A stretch of 34,993 bases of DNA from Candidatus Nomurabacteria bacterium (lineage in GTDB: Bacteria > Patescibacteriota > Minisyncoccia > Phycocordibacterales > UBA9973): the NCBI GenBank assembly GCA_020850295.1, contig JADZEV010000010.1, forward strand, positions 1 through 34,993. The letters are read 5' to 3'. Shown here piece by piece: positions 11,209 through 16,437 of the stretch; the stretch's first letter is position 1, and each line of letters begins with the position of its first letter. A program made the translations under genes and the position numbers. Below the pieces are notes generated by a model, which did not search any database, had not been told where the DNA came from, and was given only the letters and a program-made list of their open reading frames with translations.

Positions 11209-12028
11209 ATTTTGCATATTTTTTGAACCAAGTTCTTTGGCGTTTTGCATATTGCCAGATAGATTTTTCAAGCTCAGATAACATTTCTTGTCTGGTTAAT
11301 TTTTCTTGTAAGTATAAAGCCAAATATCTGTACTCAAGCCCTAGGTCCTCAAGTCTTTTCCAAGACATTTTATTAGAGTGCAAATTTTCAACTTCTTTAA
11401 CCATACCTTTTCTCATTCTTTTAAAAAGTCTGTCGTGAATTCTTTGTTTCAAAACATCATCTGGAAAATCTAAATATATCCATTCTACATCGTATTTTTT
11501 TGTGCGCTTTATCTTTGGGACAGAGCCTAATTCTGTAGCTATTTCTATAGCTCTGATAATCCTGACTCTGTTTTTTATATCAACTGTTTCAAATCTTTCA
11601 GGATCTAGTTTTTGTAATTTTTTTGATAATTCTTCCACAGAAAATTTTTCTAATTGTTTTCTTAGTGTTTTGCTTGGTTTCACTTTTGGAAAATCTTGAT
11701 CGTATATAACTGCATCAATATAAAATCCTGTTCCACCACAAATTATAGGAGTTTTACCTTTTTTAAAAATATCTTTTATGACTTTTTCAGCAAGACGTTT
11801 GTACTGAGTTACAGAAAAAACTGTTTTAGGATTTGCGACATCTAGTAGGTGGTGAGGAACACCCTTCATTTCTTTTTTTGTAATCTTCCCACTACCTACA
11901 TCTAATCCTTTATAAACTTGTCTTGAATCAGCAGAAATAATTTCACCATTTATTTTTTTGGCTAACTCTACAGCATAGTCACTTTTACCTGTAGCTGTAG
12001 GTCCACAAACTACAATTATTTTTTCCAT
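11207..12028 (-). CDS. miaA: tRNA dimethylallyltransferase
   Basis: P-loop VVCGPTATGKS, then ISADSRQVYKGLDVGSGK and VPHHLLD, typical of MiaA. Confidence 0.9.
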   Translation of the reverse strand: MEKIIVVCGPTATGKSDYAVELAKKINGEIISADSRQVYKGLDVGSGKITKKEMKGVPHHLLDVANPKTVFSVTQYKRLAEKVIKDIFKKGKTPIICGGTGFYIDAVIYDQDFPKVKPSKTLRKQLEKFSVEELSKKLQKLDPERFETVDIKNRVRIIRAIEIATELGSVPKIKRTKKYDVEWIYLDFPDDVLKQRIHDRLFKRMRKGMVKEVENLHSNKMSWKRLEDLGLEYRYLALYLQEKLTRQEMLSELEKSIWQYAKRQRTWFKKYAK

Positions 12029-12031
12029 GTT

Positions 12032-12229
12032 GTGTCTCTATTGTACCAAGTTAGAACCTATTTTCAAAATAAATAAAGCGGACGAATTTTTGCGAAACAG
12101 TTTTCTGGGGAAAAGGATTCGCAAAAATTCGACTAGTGATTTTCTGAAATTCAGTCTCGCCCGCGCGGAGGAGGGGTCTGGGGAGGAATCCGCGCGGGCT
12201 TTGGCATTTCTTTTTTGGCGGGGCGGGTA
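12032..12229. repeat. IR-A left copy (198 bp), inverted repeat partner of 14270-14467
   Basis: By hand alignment, 197/198 identical to the reverse complement of 14270-14467 (single G/C difference near 12137). Contains the miaA promoter, a 13+5-bp AT hairpin (12084-12130), the palindrome CTGAAATTCAG, and an 11-bp GC hairpin GCCCGCGCGGA/TCCGCGCGGGC (12169-12209) followed by a T-rich tract. Confidence 0.95.
12040..12067 (-). promoter_or_regulatory. miaA promoter inside IR-A (TTGAAA-16-TACAAT, extended TG)
   Basis: Minus strand reads TTGAAAataggttctaacttggTACAATagagacacaacATG. The -10 ends 11 nt before the ATG, so the mRNA is near-leaderless. Confidence 0.6.
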
Positions 12230-12231
12230 AC

Positions 12232-12260
12232 TTGAAAAAATGCCCACAAAATGATAAAAT
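12232..12260 (+). promoter_or_regulatory. Cassette promoter (TTGAAA-17-TAAAAT, extended TG)
   Basis: TTGAAA at 12232-12237, TGa then TAAAAT at 12255-12260, 9 nt before the ATG at 12270. Confidence 0.55.
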
Positions 12261-12269
12261 GAAATTGTT

Positions 12270-13082
12270 ATGAAAATCGCACTTGCAAACCTATGTAAAA
12301 CAGAAGACTTTGCAAAACTCTCATCGCTAGATGAGTCAATTTCATTTTTGAATGAGAACAAAATCGAGTACCTCGATTTTGCCTCTGGTACAGAAAAGAT
12401 TGATGGCATGGTTGAAAAATTTAATCAATCAATACTTTCTGATGCAAAAATTGTTTGGGTAATTCGCGGAGGTAATAAATGTATTCAAACACTTGATAAA
12501 TTAGACTGGGATAATATTGTAAAATTAGGCAAACGATTTTATGGATTAAGTGATTTTACTCATTTTTCAACCATGGCAGTCTCAAAAGGAATTACCTGTT
12601 TTTATGGACAAGGACTTACTCGCATTAAACAATTTTTTCCCGCTGAAAATGATAGAAAATTTATTGCTGATTTTTTAAAAACAGGAATCCCTGTTTCAGA
12701 AAATGCAAAAGCTCTCGCTTTTGCAAATAGTGATTTAGATATTTCCAAGGAAAAAATAATTGGTGGACATCTCCTGATTTTTACACTCATGCAAAGTCTT
12801 TTAAATATAGATTTGAAAAATCGCCATTTGTTTATTGAATACCATACAGGAGCGATTGGTGAAGATTTAGATGATTTTGGATATTACCTCGACCAACTTT
12901 TGTATGTTGTAAAAAATAATATGCCAAAGGGATTTATTTTTGGTAGAACAGAAATGAAGAATTTTGATAATTCTCAAATACCGATTGATGAAATAAATAA
13001 ATACTCTGTTGAAAAGTTATCAAAATATAATCTACCAATTTATTATATTGACCATTTTAAAAACACAATTACTTTTTCATAA
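12270..13082 (+). CDS. S66 peptidase family, LD-carboxypeptidase / MccF-like
   Basis: VWVIRGGNKCIQTLDKLDW and the nucleophile motif GLSDFTH, typical of LdcA/MccF. Confidence 0.65.
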   Translation: MKIALANLCKTEDFAKLSSLDESISFLNENKIEYLDFASGTEKIDGMVEKFNQSILSDAKIVWVIRGGNKCIQTLDKLDWDNIVKLGKRFYGLSDFTHFSTMAVSKGITCFYGQGLTRIKQFFPAENDRKFIADFLKTGIPVSENAKALAFANSDLDISKEKIIGGHLLIFTLMQSLLNIDLKNRHLFIEYHTGAIGEDLDDFGYYLDQLLYVVKNNMPKGFIFGRTEMKNFDNSQIPIDEINKYSVEKLSKYNLPIYYIDHFKNTITFS

Positions 13083-13084
13083 TT

Positions 13085-13588
13085 ATGGCAATCTACGATG
13101 CAAAGACAAAGGACAACAAATGTATTTTTTGCGAAATAGTTTCTGGTAATATTCCAGTGGCAGGAAAATTTTGGGAAAATGATGAATTTATGGCTTTTCT
13201 TTCGATTGACCCAAACACAGAGGGTTTTACTTGTGTCATACCAAAGCAACATTATGGAAGCGATGTTTTGAAAATGCCTGACGATGTATTGCAGAGATTT
13301 ATCATCGCTTCAAAAGAAGTTGCTTTGGTATTAGAAAAATACTTTTCTGATGTTGGGCGTGTTGGTGTAATGATGGAAGGAACAGAAATCGATCATGCCC
13401 ATATTAAACTCGCTCCGCTTCATGGCACAGAAAATCTAAAGAAAGGAATTTGGGAACAATTCTTAAGTGGAAAAGAATTTTGGTTTGATAAATATGAGGG
13501 TTGGATTTGTTCTGGTGGAGGACCAAAAGCAAAAGAGGAAGATTTGAAAAAACTCGCCGAAGAGCTATTTAAAATACAAAAAGTTTAA
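13085..13588 (+). CDS. HIT (histidine triad) family nucleotide hydrolase
   Basis: N-terminal CIFCEIVSG and the histidine triad DHAHIKL. Confidence 0.8.
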   Translation: MAIYDAKTKDNKCIFCEIVSGNIPVAGKFWENDEFMAFLSIDPNTEGFTCVIPKQHYGSDVLKMPDDVLQRFIIASKEVALVLEKYFSDVGRVGVMMEGTEIDHAHIKLAPLHGTENLKKGIWEQFLSGKEFWFDKYEGWICSGGGPKAKEEDLKKLAEELFKIQKV

Positions 13589-13590
13589 CT

Positions 13591-14169
13591 ATGAAAACTA
13601 TTTTACTTTTTCCCGGCGCATTTAATCCTCCACACTATGGACACGCAGAAACTATTAAAATAGCTCTTGAAAAGTCATCTTTTGATGAACTATGGGTTGT
13701 ACCGTCTGGAAAGCGAGATGATAAAAATATTACAACAAACTATGAAGATCGTCGTGCCTTGGGTGAATTTTTTGTAGAATATTTAGAATCAGAAGTCGAT
13801 ATTCCAGTGAAATTGATTACAGCGGAACTGGATAATATAGACGGAAAATTTACTCGCGAAATATTAAAGGAAATAAAATTACAACCAGATGTAGAAATAA
13901 CACAATTGATTGGATTGGATGGTTTTTTACATCTTCAACGCAAATTAACTGATACCGAAGAAAAATTTATTGTTATGAATAGACAAGGATATGAATTTCC
14001 TAAAAATTTTTCTCATAATGATAATGTAGTAATTTTTGAGGGAACCAAAAAATCTATATCCTCAACTCAAATTCGGAATATGGTTAAAAACCATGATGAT
14101 AGTTATAAAAAACTTGTTCCCGAAAAAATCGCTTCATATATAGAAAGTAAAAAGTTGTATCTTTTTTAG
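13591..14169 (+). CDS. nadD: Nicotinate/nicotinamide-nucleotide adenylyltransferase-like (NadD family)
   Basis: GAFNPPHYGHAE ((H/T)xGH nucleotidyltransferase motif) and the C-terminal ISSTQIR motif. Confidence 0.75.
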   Translation: MKTILLFPGAFNPPHYGHAETIKIALEKSSFDELWVVPSGKRDDKNITTNYEDRRALGEFFVEYLESEVDIPVKLITAELDNIDGKFTREILKEIKLQPDVEITQLIGLDGFLHLQRKLTDTEEKFIVMNRQGYEFPKNFSHNDNVVIFEGTKKSISSTQIRNMVKNHDDSYKKLVPEKIASYIESKKLYLF

Positions 14170-14224
14170 GGAGCAAAAATTGTGCGCGAATGGGTGGGTG
14201 GGTCAAGCACAAACTAATTTTTAT

Positions 14225-14250
14225 ATTTCGGCGTTGCCGAAATTTCATTG
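14225..14250 (+). terminator. Terminator of the 3-gene cassette
   Basis: ATTTCGGC-gtt-GCCGAAAT followed by a T-rich sequence. Confidence 0.6.
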
Positions 14251-14269
14251 TTATATATTTTTTTCTTAA

Positions 14270-14467
14270 TACCCGCCCCGCCAAAAAAGAAATGCCAAAG
14301 CCCGCGCGGATTCCTCCCCAGACCCCTCCTCCGCGCGGGCGAGACTGAATTTCAGAAAATCAGTAGTCGAATTTTTGCGAATCCTTTTCCCCAGAAAACT
14401 GTTTCGCAAAAATTCGTCCGCTTTATTTATTTTGAAAATAGGTTCTAACTTGGTACAATAGAGACAC
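14270..14467. repeat. IR-A right copy (198 bp)
   Basis: Reverse complement of 12032-12229 (197/198). Its promoter copy points rightward into IR-B. Confidence 0.95.
14432..14459 (+). promoter_or_regulatory. Duplicate of the miaA promoter, firing into the IR-B structured sequence
   Basis: TTGAAA at 14432-14437, 16-nt spacer, TGg then TACAAT at 14454-14459. The predicted start near 14466 coincides with the first base of the IR-B homology. Confidence 0.55.
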
Positions 14468-14611
14468 CAGAACAGAACTAAGAGGCTCTGAACGAGCCAA
14501 TGCGTGGGCGTGCCGAAGGCACGCCCACTCTGTTTGCCCTGATTTTGCGGGGGAATTCAGAAATGCGGGCGCGCTTGCGCGCACTGTTTTTCCGCCAAGG
14601 AGGAGGTTCGA
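14465..14611. repeat. IR-B left copy (147 bp), inverted repeat partner of 16186-16332
   Basis: By hand alignment, 141/147 identical to the reverse complement of 16186-16332. Begins with CACCA, identical to the last 5 nt of tRNA-Leu. Confidence 0.9.
14466..14591 (+). ncRNA. Candidate structured RNA (B RNA, promoter-driven copy), ~126 nt
   Basis: A promoter lies directly upstream. Predicted helices: GAACAGA/TCTGTTT enclosing GGCTC-tgaac-GAGCC and the 11-bp GTGGGCGTGCC-gaa-GGCACGCCCAC, then CTGATTT/AATTCAG, then GCGCG-cttg-CGCGC plus TTTTT (terminator-like). GC-rich in an AT-rich genome. Confidence 0.45.
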
Positions 14612-14677
14612 AATCAGAAGCGAGGAATTTGCTTTGTCCGAAAATACAAAAAGAATTTTTGTTGTCGAAATATTTTT

Positions 14678-14785
14678 TGGTATACTGGTTATGCTCACAA
14701 TATTATTAATTAGTCAGTAGAAATGGTTATGCTAGAACAATTGTGACTAATGTTGTGATTGTGAGCCTAGCATAACCATTTCTAC
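14678..14785 (+). promoter_or_regulatory. LSR 5' region: extended -10 plus nested, mutually exclusive inverted repeats
   Basis: TGgTATACT at 14678-14686. Perfect 19-bp arms GTAGAAATGGTTATGCTAG (14717-14735) and CTAGCATAACCATTTCTAC (14767-14785). GGTTATGCTCACAAT (14687-14701) can pair instead with ATTGTGAGC..AGCATAACC (14758-14777). ATTGTGA occurs 3 times. The ATG lies 11 nt after the last arm and has no SD. Confidence 0.5.
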
Positions 14786-14796
14786 TTTATGTACAT

Positions 14797-16437
14797 ATGC
14801 AAAATCAAAAATTCTTTTTGTATGCTCGCAAGTCTACGGATGTCGAGGATAAACAAGTATTGTCTATCGAAGCACAGTTGGACGAATTGCGAGACTATGC
14901 CAAGCGAGAAGCAATAGAAATTTCCGCCGAATATGTGGAAAAACAATCTGCGAAAATTCCAGGTCGTCCGATATTTAACAAGATGTTAGATGATATTGAA
15001 AAACTCGGTGGAAGTATTCTCGCATGGCATCCTGACCGACTTGCCCGCAATTCAGTGGACGGCGGTCGAGTGATTTACCTCCTCGACACAGGGAAACTTG
15101 CGAGCCTGAAGTTTCCAACCTTTTGGTGTGATTCCACGTCACAAGGTAAGTTCATGCTCAACATGGCTTTCGGACAAAGCAAATACTATGTAGATTCTCT
15201 TTCCGAGAACACGAAGCGTGGACTTCGCCAAAAAGTCCGTAATGGAGATTACCCAAGCCAAGCGCCTGTTGGGTATATCAACGACTCTCGGACTAAAAGT
15301 ATTGTGGTGGACAAGAAAAAATCTCGTGTCATTCGCTTGGCTTTTGAACGATATGTCAAAGGTGGTCAAAGACTGGAAGACATCGCAAACTTTTTGGCGA
15401 AGAACGGAATATCCACGCGTTCCGGAAAGAGAATGTCCAAATCTCGTGCGACTTTCATTTTGTCCAATCCGTTTTACATTGGTTTATTCAAATACGGTGG
15501 TGAACGTCACGAAGGAAAGTACGAGCCAATCATTTCAAAGAAACTTTTTGATGAAGCACAGGAAATGTTGAAATTTCGTGGTCAACCTGAACGAAAACCA
15601 CAAAATCAACCTCAACCTTTTTGTGGACTCATTTCCTGTGCTTCCTGCGGAATGATGATAACTGGCGAACATAAATTCAAACGGCAGAAAAATGGTAATG
15701 TTCACGAATATACTTACTATCGTTGTACGAAAAAAAGAAAAGATTTTGTTTGTAAAGAATCTGCCGTTAGAGAAGAAGAATTGGATCGCCAGTTATCATC
15801 TCTCATTCAAAAAGTTTCTTTGCCCAAAGACTGGGCGGAGGAACTCAATCGTCTTGCTTTGCAAGACTACGGAAAATCCGCCAAGTCTTTGGCTGTTTGC
15901 GTGAAAGAAAAGCAAGACGCCATTTCTGCTATCAATATTCGATTGGAGCGACTTCTCAATGGATATTTGGAACAAGATATTGAACAGGAAATATATCGTG
16001 CTGAAAAATCAAAGTTATTACTTCGAAAGAAGTCGCTCGATGAAGAAATGTCATCTCTTTCACGCAAACAAAATACTTGGCTCGAACCTTTCCAAAATTG
16101 GCTAAAAGTCGCACAGAGCTTGGACAAAACCGCTTCTGATTCAGACCTTTTTGCTAAAAAGGTCTGTGCCAAAGAAATCTTTGGCTCGAACCTCCTCCTC
16201 GGCGAAAAATTAGTGCGCGCCAGCGCGCCCGCATTTCTGAATTCCCCCGCAAAATCAGGGCAAACAGAATGGGCGTGCCTTCGGCACGCCCACGCATTGG
16301 CTCGTTCAGAGCCTCTTAGTTCTGTTCTGGTGCCCGAGGAGAGACTTGAACTCTCACCCCTTACGAGACTCGATTTTGAGTCGAGCGCGTCTACCATTCC
16401 GCCACTCGGGCTAACACGCTTATTTTACATGGTTTAA
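14797..16437 (+). CDS. Large serine recombinase (resolvase domain + recombinase domain + zinc ribbon + coiled coil), with a 3' extension through IR-B and antisense tRNA-Leu
   Basis: N-terminal FLYARKSTD (catalytic Ser) and HPDRLARN. Recombinase domain SNPFYIGLFKYGG. Zinc ribbon CASCG...YYRCTKK. The paralog at 32630-33430 ends about 6 codons after the shared motif G(S/N)N.LL..EK, whereas this ORF continues ~75 more codons. About aa 464-546 in total are encoded by IR-B and the complement of tRNA-Leu. Confidence 0.85.
   Translation: MQNQKFFLYARKSTDVEDKQVLSIEAQLDELRDYAKREAIEISAEYVEKQSAKIPGRPIFNKMLDDIEKLGGSILAWHPDRLARNSVDGGRVIYLLDTGKLASLKFPTFWCDSTSQGKFMLNMAFGQSKYYVDSLSENTKRGLRQKVRNGDYPSQAPVGYINDSRTKSIVVDKKKSRVIRLAFERYVKGGQRLEDIANFLAKNGISTRSGKRMSKSRATFILSNPFYIGLFKYGGERHEGKYEPIISKKLFDEAQEMLKFRGQPERKPQNQPQPFCGLISCASCGMMITGEHKFKRQKNGNVHEYTYYRCTKKRKDFVCKESAVREEELDRQLSSLIQKVSLPKDWAEELNRLALQDYGKSAKSLAVCVKEKQDAISAINIRLERLLNGYLEQDIEQEIYRAEKSKLLLRKKSLDEEMSSLSRKQNTWLEPFQNWLKVAQSLDKTASDSDLFAKKVCAKEIFGSNLLLGEKLVRASAPAFLNSPAKSGQTEWACLRHAHALARSEPLSSVLVPEERLELSPLTRLDFESSASTIPPLGLTRLFYMV
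16186..16332. repeat. IR-B right copy (147 bp)
   Basis: Reverse complement of 14465-14611 with 6 mismatches. Its outer 5 nt are the ACCA end (plus the preceding C) of tRNA-Leu. Confidence 0.9.
16205..16327 (-). ncRNA. Candidate structured RNA (B RNA, tRNA-Leu trailer copy), ~123 nt
   Basis: Starts immediately after the encoded CCA of tRNA-Leu and ends at GCGCG-ctgg-CGCGC plus TTTTT. Same predicted helices as the 14466-14591 copy. Confidence 0.45.
16328..16411 (-). tRNA. tRNA-Leu (anticodon CAA), CCA encoded
   Basis: Hand fold: acceptor GCCCGAG/CTCGGGC, anticodon arm CTCGA-CTCAAAA-TCGAG, long variable arm, T arm GAGAG-TTCAAGT-CTCTC, discriminator A, CCA. Confidence 0.9.

Follow-up and report, generated by a model that had tools for sequence, protein, structure and literature searches.

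We analysed a stretch of 34,993 nucleotides (nt) from Candidatus Nomurabacteria bacterium (assembly GCA_020850295.1, contig JADZEV010000010.1, positions 1-34,993 of the forward strand), hereafter the window, which carries a 147-nt inverted repeat, IR-B, at the two ends of a module encoding a large serine recombinase (LSR). With a probability that we put at about 0.7, IR-B is the dual-coded terminal inverted repeat of this LSR module, which is inserted at the 3' end of a tRNA-Leu gene; transcripts that run inward through the repeat would terminate within it and be antisense to the LSR. An earlier account, made from the letters of the window without database searches (the sequence-only reading), had taken IR-B for a structured RNA gene. 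Part of that proposal stands, as the repeat does have conserved hairpins, a source of transcription upstream, a terminator-like end and no counterpart in Rfam. IR-B is, however, not a free-standing RNA gene: it is found solely as the inverted end-repeats of the recombinase module, and its right copy lies inside the recombinase open reading frame (ORF).

Reading from left to right, the order in this part of the window is miaA (minus strand), IR-A, three cargo genes, IR-A, IR-B, the LSR gene, IR-B, tRNA-Leu(CAA) (minus strand) and ParB. We call an arm of IR-A a, an arm of IR-B b and the cargo X (rc, reverse complement), and use b-sense strand for the strand of IR-B that is read inward. The features are as follows.

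12032-16332, no strand: the whole element of ~4.3 kb, [rc(a)-X-a][b-LSR-rc(b)], with a CAC/GTG core at both ends and, inverted, at the a-b junction
14465-14611, plus strand (b-sense): IR-B left arm b, which begins with the CAC core, has no coding role here and lies downstream of the IR-A tip promoter
16186-16332, minus strand (b-sense): IR-B right arm b, directly behind tRNA-Leu; its plus strand forms LSR codons 464-512
14797-16437, plus strand: LSR ORF, with a core (14797-16185), an IR-B-encoded tail (16186-16332) and a read-out into antisense tRNA-Leu (16333-16437)
16328-16411, minus strand: tRNA-Leu(CAA), the integration target; its final bases, C72-A73-CCA, are also the first 5 nt of IR-B
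14259-14467, plus strand: IR-A right arm a, which abuts IR-B, the CAC core at 14465-14467 being common to both
12032-12240, minus strand: IR-A left arm; the element begins on the left with its tip, GTG (12032-12034)
14432-14459, plus strand: predicted sigma-70-type promoter, TTGAAA-16-TGgTACAAT, in the IR-A tip, pointing into IR-B
12067-12040, minus strand: identical copy of the predicted promoter, pointing into miaA
11207-12028, minus strand: miaA, directly behind tRNA-Leu(CAA) in relatives and here cut off from it by the element, 4 nt from the IR-A tip
12241-14258, plus strand: cargo segment X, with an LD-carboxypeptidase-like gene (12270-13082), a HIT gene (13085-13588) and a nucleotidyltransferase gene (13591-14169)

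The two IR-B arms, each of 147 nt, are 96% complementary, and the IR-A pair (209 nt, one mismatch) ends where IR-B starts. CAC, which is C72-A73-C74 of the tRNA, is present at 12032-12034, 14465-14467 and 16330-16332. As the promoter stands before the left arm and tRNA-Leu before the right arm, both arms, when read inward, lie directly behind a source of transcription.

Empty sites were found among relatives by searching for loci anchored on ParB, where the ancestral order is tRNA-Trp, miaA, tRNA-Leu(caa), ParB, RelA. In loci L085, L127, L088, L092, L102, L104 and L120 miaA starts 0-11 nt past tRNA-Leu(caa). The empty site in L085 reads ...GGGCACCAT followed directly by ATGGAAAAAATAATTG. In the window, the tRNA side reads ...GGGCAC followed by CAGAAC... 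and the miaA side ...GAGACAC followed by AACATGGAAAAAATAATTG, and tRNA-Leu and miaA are 4.3 kb apart, with the same CAC bounding both ends. The comparison of empty with occupied sites, together with the 3-nt core at both ends, shows that 12032-16332 is one inserted element, and such a pair of sites with a short identical core is characteristic of a site-specific integrative element. Indeed, the empty site of the window is restored only if the IR-A-X part and the IR-B-LSR part are removed together. The joined ends of the element would have the same sequence as the internal a-b junction, so assemblies cannot reveal a circle junction. An exact-pattern metagenome search for the empty site (from the tRNA-Leu end to the miaA start) gave no match. 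Loci L081, L093 and L108 have other DNA between tRNA-Leu and miaA, which in L093 holds ordinary-looking ORFs; these inserts contain no comparable inverted repeats and no match to a, b or the LSR. The closest empty-site relative (L085, positions 40-2352) has a tRNA-Leu(cag)-miaA pair on the plus strand and a tRNA-Leu(caa)-miaA pair on the minus strand, inverted relative to each other and with tRNA-Trp between them.

We compared the neighbourhoods of the LSR gene in 80 loci from metagenome-assembled genomes (MAGs) of Patescibacteria. Sequence resembling b surrounds the LSR gene in 75 of the 80, and wherever the flank suffices the gene is bounded by inverted arms, typically of 147 nt, which start at a CAC or CTC core and have a conserved promoter or a tRNA 3' end immediately before them. 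Between LSR residue 463 and the convergent tRNA's 3' end there are 143 nt in most loci (122, 134, 135, 144, 145, 155, 156, 167, 169 or 176 nt in others). The target tRNAs have at least 11 identities: Leu (five anticodons), Arg, Val, Gly, Lys, Thr, Ile, Tyr, Met, Ala and Glu. Elements at tRNA-Thr, which has U as the discriminator base, carry CTC in both arms and not CAC. In front of the other arm is either the IR-A tip, with the consensus TTTTGaAAAtAGGTtCgAacTTGGTAcAATAaAga immediately before CAC, or a second tRNA (L009, L017, L021, L030, L044 and L050); no unit in this set has ordinary tRNA-downstream sequence at its second flank. At least 10 loci have, abutting IR-B, an IR-A pair whose arms measure 170-400 nt, are 95-100% identical and enclose 1.4-3 kb of unrelated cargo; in every one of them IR-A ends in CAC and then diverges. 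The LSR gene is reversed relative to the tRNA and the promoter in L021 and L048, so that both orientations occur. Like an insertion sequence (IS), the recombinase-only unit is surrounded by inverted repeats and present twice in several genomes, but these loci do not show it alone in unrelated targets.

The repeat is confined to this setting. A covariance model of the IR-B arm matched only the two IR-B copies in the window and had zero matches in 387 kb of related loci without the LSR; all of its 148 matches in LSR loci were arms adjoining the recombinase. The Rfam scan that the sequence-only reading had called for returned no known family. At the gathering threshold only tRNAs passed, with nothing for IR-B or IR-A, and with E values up to 10 IR-B gave a single chance match of 16 nt and 15 bits.

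The sequence-only reading had assigned coding function to just the inner ~30 bp of the repeat. This proved too narrow, as all 147 nt of the right copy fall within the recombinase ORF (14797-16437), to which the right arm supplies the 48 last in-element codons. The frame of the LSR is free of stops in every one of 62 distinct 147-nt arms, whereas the other five frames have stops in 26-55 of the 62. Arm lengths are 126, 138, 147 (the mode), 159, 171 and 180 nt, that is, they change in multiples of 3, except for a few arms whose local alignment is one base short. In every locus the LSR frame crosses the whole right arm and then enters the antisense tRNA or the IR-A tip; in the window it meets no stop before leaving the element and closes after a further 35 codons read antisense to tRNA-Leu (16333-16437). 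The tail conforms to the pattern FGSNLLLGEK.VRASAP...W.AL..A...KP.SS.LV, and changes in the innermost 20 nt of the arm are mostly synonymous. Over most of the tail, however, protein constraint is weak, since variability at third codon positions (0.90 bits) is just a little above that at the other two (0.76 and 0.68 bits). In other loci the extra tail of the LSR is whatever adjoins the element, and G(I/L/F)EP recurs in it where a T-arm is read antisense.

We examined the fold of the arm. Folding energies are -68.7 kcal/mol (z = -4.8 relative to shuffles) for the left copy and -61.7 kcal/mol (z = -3.3) for the right; the opposite strand beats shuffles too (z = -3.3). All five helices proposed by the sequence-only reading can be drawn in this sequence, and a gap-free alignment of 62 distinct homologous 147-nt arms separated three that are conserved (H1, H2 and H4) from two that fail, namely the closing helix and CTGATTT/AATTCAG.

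H1, GGCTC-tgaac-GAGCC: 14484-14498, plus strand, and 16299-16313, minus strand, in the right arm; columns 20-24/30-34, 85% of cells paired; kept, with compensatory changes
H2, 11 bp with the loop GAA: 14504-14528, plus strand, and 16269-16293, minus strand, in the right arm; columns 40-50/54-64, 92% of cells paired; five perfectly covarying pairs
H4, GCGCG-CTTG-CGCGC and a T-run: 14569-14592, plus strand, and 16205-16228, minus strand, in the right arm; columns 105-109/114-118, 84% of cells paired; an inward-facing intrinsic-terminator-like site, its hairpin shifted by 4 nt in a second sequence class
Closing helix GAACAGA/TCTGTTT: columns 6-12/65-71, 49% of cells paired; fails
CTGATTT/AATTCAG: columns 75-81/90-96, 56% of cells paired; fails

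The covariation that the sequence-only reading had suggested looking for is thus present in H2, where five pairs swap Watson-Crick types with zero mismatch among the 62 arms. H2 has at least 30 haplotypes, and the residues it encodes vary freely (WACLRHAH, WDALRASH, WAALCAAH), which indicates that base pairing, and not protein, is maintained there. At their positions, H1 and H4 are each represented by several unrelated sequences. RNAalifold alone retains just H2 and part of H4, and no fold is conserved in the stretch that links H2 to H4. Judged as a structured RNA gene, then, IR-B has a covarying H2 and conserved H1 and H4, but two of its five helices fail, the arm is coding and the alignment and covariance model amount to only 3.85 effective sequences. 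In one locus (L039, arms at 144-290 and 1753-1899) the stems of H2 are identical in the two arms, but the loop of the left arm is flipped from GAA to TTC; this suggests template switching at a palindrome.

H4 with the T-run behind it had been predicted to be a terminator, and the features expected of one are there: the hairpin at 14569-14582 is followed by TGTTTTT and has its twin at 16228-16215, T124 and T126 are invariant in the 62 arms, the T-run is found on the b-sense strand only, and many H4 variants carry a cUUCGg loop on that same strand. The sequence therefore supports H4 and its T-run as a putative inward-facing rho-independent terminator. H1 also distinguishes the strands: its 54 distinct variants total 56 G·U pairs on the b-sense strand and 20 on the opposite one, and in many variants it forms on the b-sense strand alone. 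The H2 and H4 stems show the same stability on either strand and have almost no G·U (zero in the H2 core of the 62 arms), so they speak only weakly for selection on RNA. For these two stems the comparison of G·U pairs between strands is uninformative, as the few non-Watson-Crick cells of H2 are C·A at the base of the stem, which is G·U on the other strand. Together, the H1 wobbles, the H4 T-run and the UUCG loops support some selection at the RNA level on the b-sense strand.

The two copies of IR-B differ at six positions (14528, 14576, 14585, 14586, 14592 and 14597), exactly as the sequence-only reading had listed them. Its claim that these differences spare the helices does not go beyond chance, because the probability that at least five of six fall on unpaired positions is 0.13 with the fold proposed there and 0.45 with the helices that survived; its own caveat was well placed, as six differences carry no statistical weight. 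When differences between arms were pooled from 21 loci, 10 of 80 broke a stem versus 34% expected (P = 1e-5), but this test is confounded: the differences cluster at 111-138, and the outer 110 nt are identical in both arms, paired or not. The sparing of stems in this pool is thus mostly due to uneven homogenisation along the arm. Arms are 95-100% identical within a locus and ~70-90% identical between loci, and the near-identity of the two arms reflects concerted evolution, or exchange between the element ends, and not RNA constraint. In L009, L013 and L037 the two arms of one unit are different sequence variants, which differ in their tips and, in L009 and L013, also in H1. Such chimeric units suggest exchange between element copies, and possibly also inversions of the chromosome between copies at different tRNAs.

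On this basis we propose the following scheme. Since an arm starts at the recombination core, its tip very probably carries a half-site for the recombinase. The attachment site of the free element would be a-CAC-b and the target tRNA-3'-end-CAC-downstream, and the integrated element would retain a second, inverted a-b junction. Recombination of this internal junction with another tRNA would, in the model, yield LSR modules between two convergent tRNAs, as in L009, L028 and L050. The tRNA-Leu transcript on the right and the predicted IR-A promoter on the left would feed the arms; with both arms supplied by outside transcription, each is expected to give a structured RNA of ~125 nt that stops at H4. 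Termination there would shield the LSR gene from read-through from the tRNA or the promoter in either orientation of the module. The RNA of an arm would be antisense to the last ~125 nt of the in-element LSR coding sequence and may lower expression of the recombinase. At the other end of the element, the outward promoter would replace the tRNA promoter for the displaced gene, here miaA.

Several points weigh against this interpretation. The strand symmetry of H2 and H4 fits a DNA palindrome, or folding of both strands, as well as it fits RNA, and a terminator alone leaves the upkeep of H1 and H2 unexplained. The scheme does not account for the need to keep the LSR frame open through the arm. 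We did not see the dyad symmetry of half-sites between the IR-A tip and the IR-B tip, and promoter, terminator and antisense role are predictions from sequence.

We considered whether IR-B could, after all, be a bona fide structured non-coding RNA gene whose RNA serves the recombinase in trans, perhaps as its cofactor, scaffold or guide. Such a gene would be expected to have a promoter, a structured body and a terminator, all of which are predicted here, as well as the covariation and conservation of H1, H2 and H4 and the strand-specific wobble pairs of H1. We nevertheless regard it as unlikely, as the repeat is never found away from the recombinase ends and the H2-H4 linker lacks a conserved fold, while the low count of broken stems in the 21-locus pool, which would otherwise favour it, is confounded by the clustering at 111-138. 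To our knowledge, LSRs are protein-only recombinases, which weighs against an RNA cofactor. A guide RNA of the bridge or seek type was rejected, because arms show no excess complementarity to their flanking tRNA (the longest match averages 5.25 nt for own and 5.26 nt for cross-locus pairs), and one arm tip adjoins many different acceptor stems. Alternatively, the hairpins might be palindromes that work at the level of DNA (cruciforms, or sites for accessory proteins or the recombinase) in synapsis or directionality, with RNA being incidental. The strictly Watson-Crick core of H2, equally stable on both strands, is consistent with this, as are the flipped H2 loop of the left arm in L039, which is what template switching on DNA would produce, and the location of the hairpins within the recombination-proximal 64 bp of each end. 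We think this quite unlikely, however, because stem sequences vary (at least 30 H2 haplotypes), which argues against binding of a sequence-specific protein, and because H1 often forms, and the T-run behind H4 is conserved, on one strand alone. Known LSR sites are ~40-50 bp of duplex DNA with no known requirement for hairpins, in part according to PMC12286644.

It is most improbable that the fold has no function at all and is a by-product of GC-rich coding in a recently duplicated recombinase 3' end. The whole arm is indeed coding on the other strand, and the six differences have no weight, but this would not explain why five H2 pairs covary without mismatch while the encoded residues change freely, why H1 and H4 occur as unrelated sequences at the same place, or why the architecture is kept in loci whose arms are only ~70% alike. 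A different question is whether the 1.87-kb unit b-LSR-rc(b) might be an IS-like, autonomous transposon whose circle junction is palindromic, with IR-A-X-IR-A being a separate element or its preferred target. Units between two convergent tRNAs without IR-A (L009, L028, L050), several genomes with two copies and many contigs of ~1.8 kb bounded by arms are in line with this possibility. It appears doubtful, since the second flank is always an IR-A tip or another tRNA and the empty site of the window requires removal of both parts; moreover, short contigs are the usual outcome of assembly at repeats. We therefore retain the reading of IR-B as the dual-coded terminal repeat of an LSR module that forms one element with IR-A and its cargo.

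The recombinase has the resolvase (PF00239, 1.3e-21), recombinase (PF07508, 3.9e-18) and zinc-ribbon (PF13408, Zn_ribbon_recom, 2.2e-8) domains of an LSR. Its closest solved structure is the A118 integrase (4KIS, E = 1.4e-6), it is at most 28% identical to any phage LSR, and no relative was found among IMG/VR viral contigs. The clade comprises ~8000 database proteins at E of 1e-10 or better, the top 120 of which are 62-94% identical, and many relatives are on contigs of ~1.7-2.1 kb. Two copies of the LSR per MAG are found in the pairs L007/L013, L002/L062, L036/L054 and L066/L080. Between the left IR-B arm and the LSR start codon of the window is a perfect 20-bp palindrome with a 31-nt spacer (14716-14735 and 14767-14786). 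Across loci the gap between arm and LSR clusters near 70 nt and 190 nt, with a few values in between, so the palindrome (14716-14786) may be an optional insert or an operator.

At the IR-A tip, the predicted promoter overlaps a tRNA T-loop-like motif, GGTTCGAA, which is 3 nt further from CAC than the real T-loop of the flanking tRNAs; the region of GGTTCGAA may be a recombinase half-site. We rejected the idea that the tip is a remnant of a tRNA, as it shares this motif with the T-loop but, on reading, has no T-stem or acceptor pairing, leaving a resemblance of motif only. A small protein encoded in IR-A was likewise rejected: ORFs of ~120 residues cross IR-A in several loci but fail protein alignment (31% column identity, gappy). 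The miaA start codon is separated by 4 nt from the tip of the repeat and by ~10 nt from the -10 box (12026-12067), which would imply a leaderless or nearly leaderless mRNA after insertion. Copies of the IR-A-tip promoter are also present away from the LSR arm, in L061 (102-140 and 4972-5013) and L066 (3074-3122). The L066 copy is predicted to drive tRNA-Val, and one of the L061 copies lies 3 kb beyond the target tRNA; these stray copies may be products of secondary recombination.

The element sits behind tRNA genes across Patescibacteria, and it is a systematic cause of breaks in metagenome assemblies, which fragment because contigs end in the IR-B and IR-A repeats. Among L001-L080 and L082-L086, very many MAG and metagenome contigs have an end within IR-A or IR-B, or immediately upstream of ParB. 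Its anatomy corrects gene calls, such as that of the LSR ORF running into the antisense tRNA, explains the contig breaks and marks small cargo islands in genomes that are themselves reduced. A recombinase that accepts the 3' ends of many tRNA genes could serve as a tool for organisms without genetics. If the RNA is functional, a serine recombinase would, unusually, be controlled by RNA, and a single stretch of DNA would be at once a recombination end, a protein tail and a structured RNA. We found no description of such an element in the literature searched, and absence there is not proof of novelty. Only tentatively, and as something we would at present rather doubt, can one go further and suggest an undescribed family of elements of the Candidate Phyla Radiation that targets tRNA 3' ends, whose LSR is controlled by, or works with, a terminal-repeat RNA driven by tRNA transcription, and whose second, inverted junction would allow recombination at further tRNA genes, thereby flipping or reshuffling the chromosome.

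The element resembles large serine integrases and transposases from phages, ICEs and SCC elements (A118/LI, Bxb1, phiC31, TnpX/TndX, CcrAB) in its domain set, with A118 as the nearest structure, and in precise insertion at a short shared core without long direct repeats. Unlike them, it has near-perfect terminal inverted repeats of 147 bp, an ORF that lacks a stop in the element and continues across the repeat to the antisense strand of the tRNA, the extreme 3' ends of tRNAs of at least 11 amino-acid identities as targets, and a second, inverted end-to-end junction inside. The ends of IS elements, for example in IS10 with its RNA-OUT, hold the 3' end of the transposase gene, inward terminators and antisense RNAs. 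Similarly, the recombinase ORF described here enters the terminal repeat, and the ends would block transcription from outside. As in IS10 RNA-OUT, a structured RNA derived from the end would be complementary to the recombinase mRNA, its antisense role here being a prediction; in contrast to RNA-OUT, the complementarity is to the 3' end and not to the translation start, and the enzyme is an LSR and not a DDE transposase. The C segment of P1 (Cin), the G segment of Mu (Gin), the Salmonella Hin segment and the yeast 2-micron plasmid (FLP) also have segments bounded by inverted repeats, with the crossover site at the outer ends; Cin, Gin and Hin are small serine recombinases that use an enhancer and Fis, and FLP is a tyrosine recombinase. 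The recombinase module likewise occurs in both orientations in different genomes. It is not a DNA invertase switch of the Hin/Gin type, as the enzyme is an LSR, and flipping leaves promoter-gene junctions unchanged because promoter and terminator are inside the repeats.

A structured RNA at the element end beside the recombinase recalls the bridge and seek RNAs of IS110/IS1111 and the omega RNAs of IS607/TnpB (PMC13604230, PMC10097598), but the element has no complementarity to target or donor, a recombinase of another family and no TnpB. With the tycheposons of Prochlorococcus it shares a small size with cargo, a site-specific integrase at one end, a position next to tRNAs and a streamlined host genome; a few tycheposons likewise have an LSR, and tycheposons have been linked to chromosomal inversions (bioRxiv 10.1101/2020.12.28.424599). 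Most tycheposons, however, have tyrosine recombinases, and each of their integrases is specific to one tRNA and leaves partial tRNA direct repeats (bioRxiv 10.1101/2020.12.28.424599). Here, in contrast, one clade of LSRs sits at many tRNAs with no partial tRNA repeat and with long inverted repeats, and no replication module was seen in the element. The element therefore differs both from tycheposons and from ordinary LSR elements in its long dual-coded repeats, the absence of an in-element stop codon, its broad range of tRNAs and its duplicated, inverted junction.

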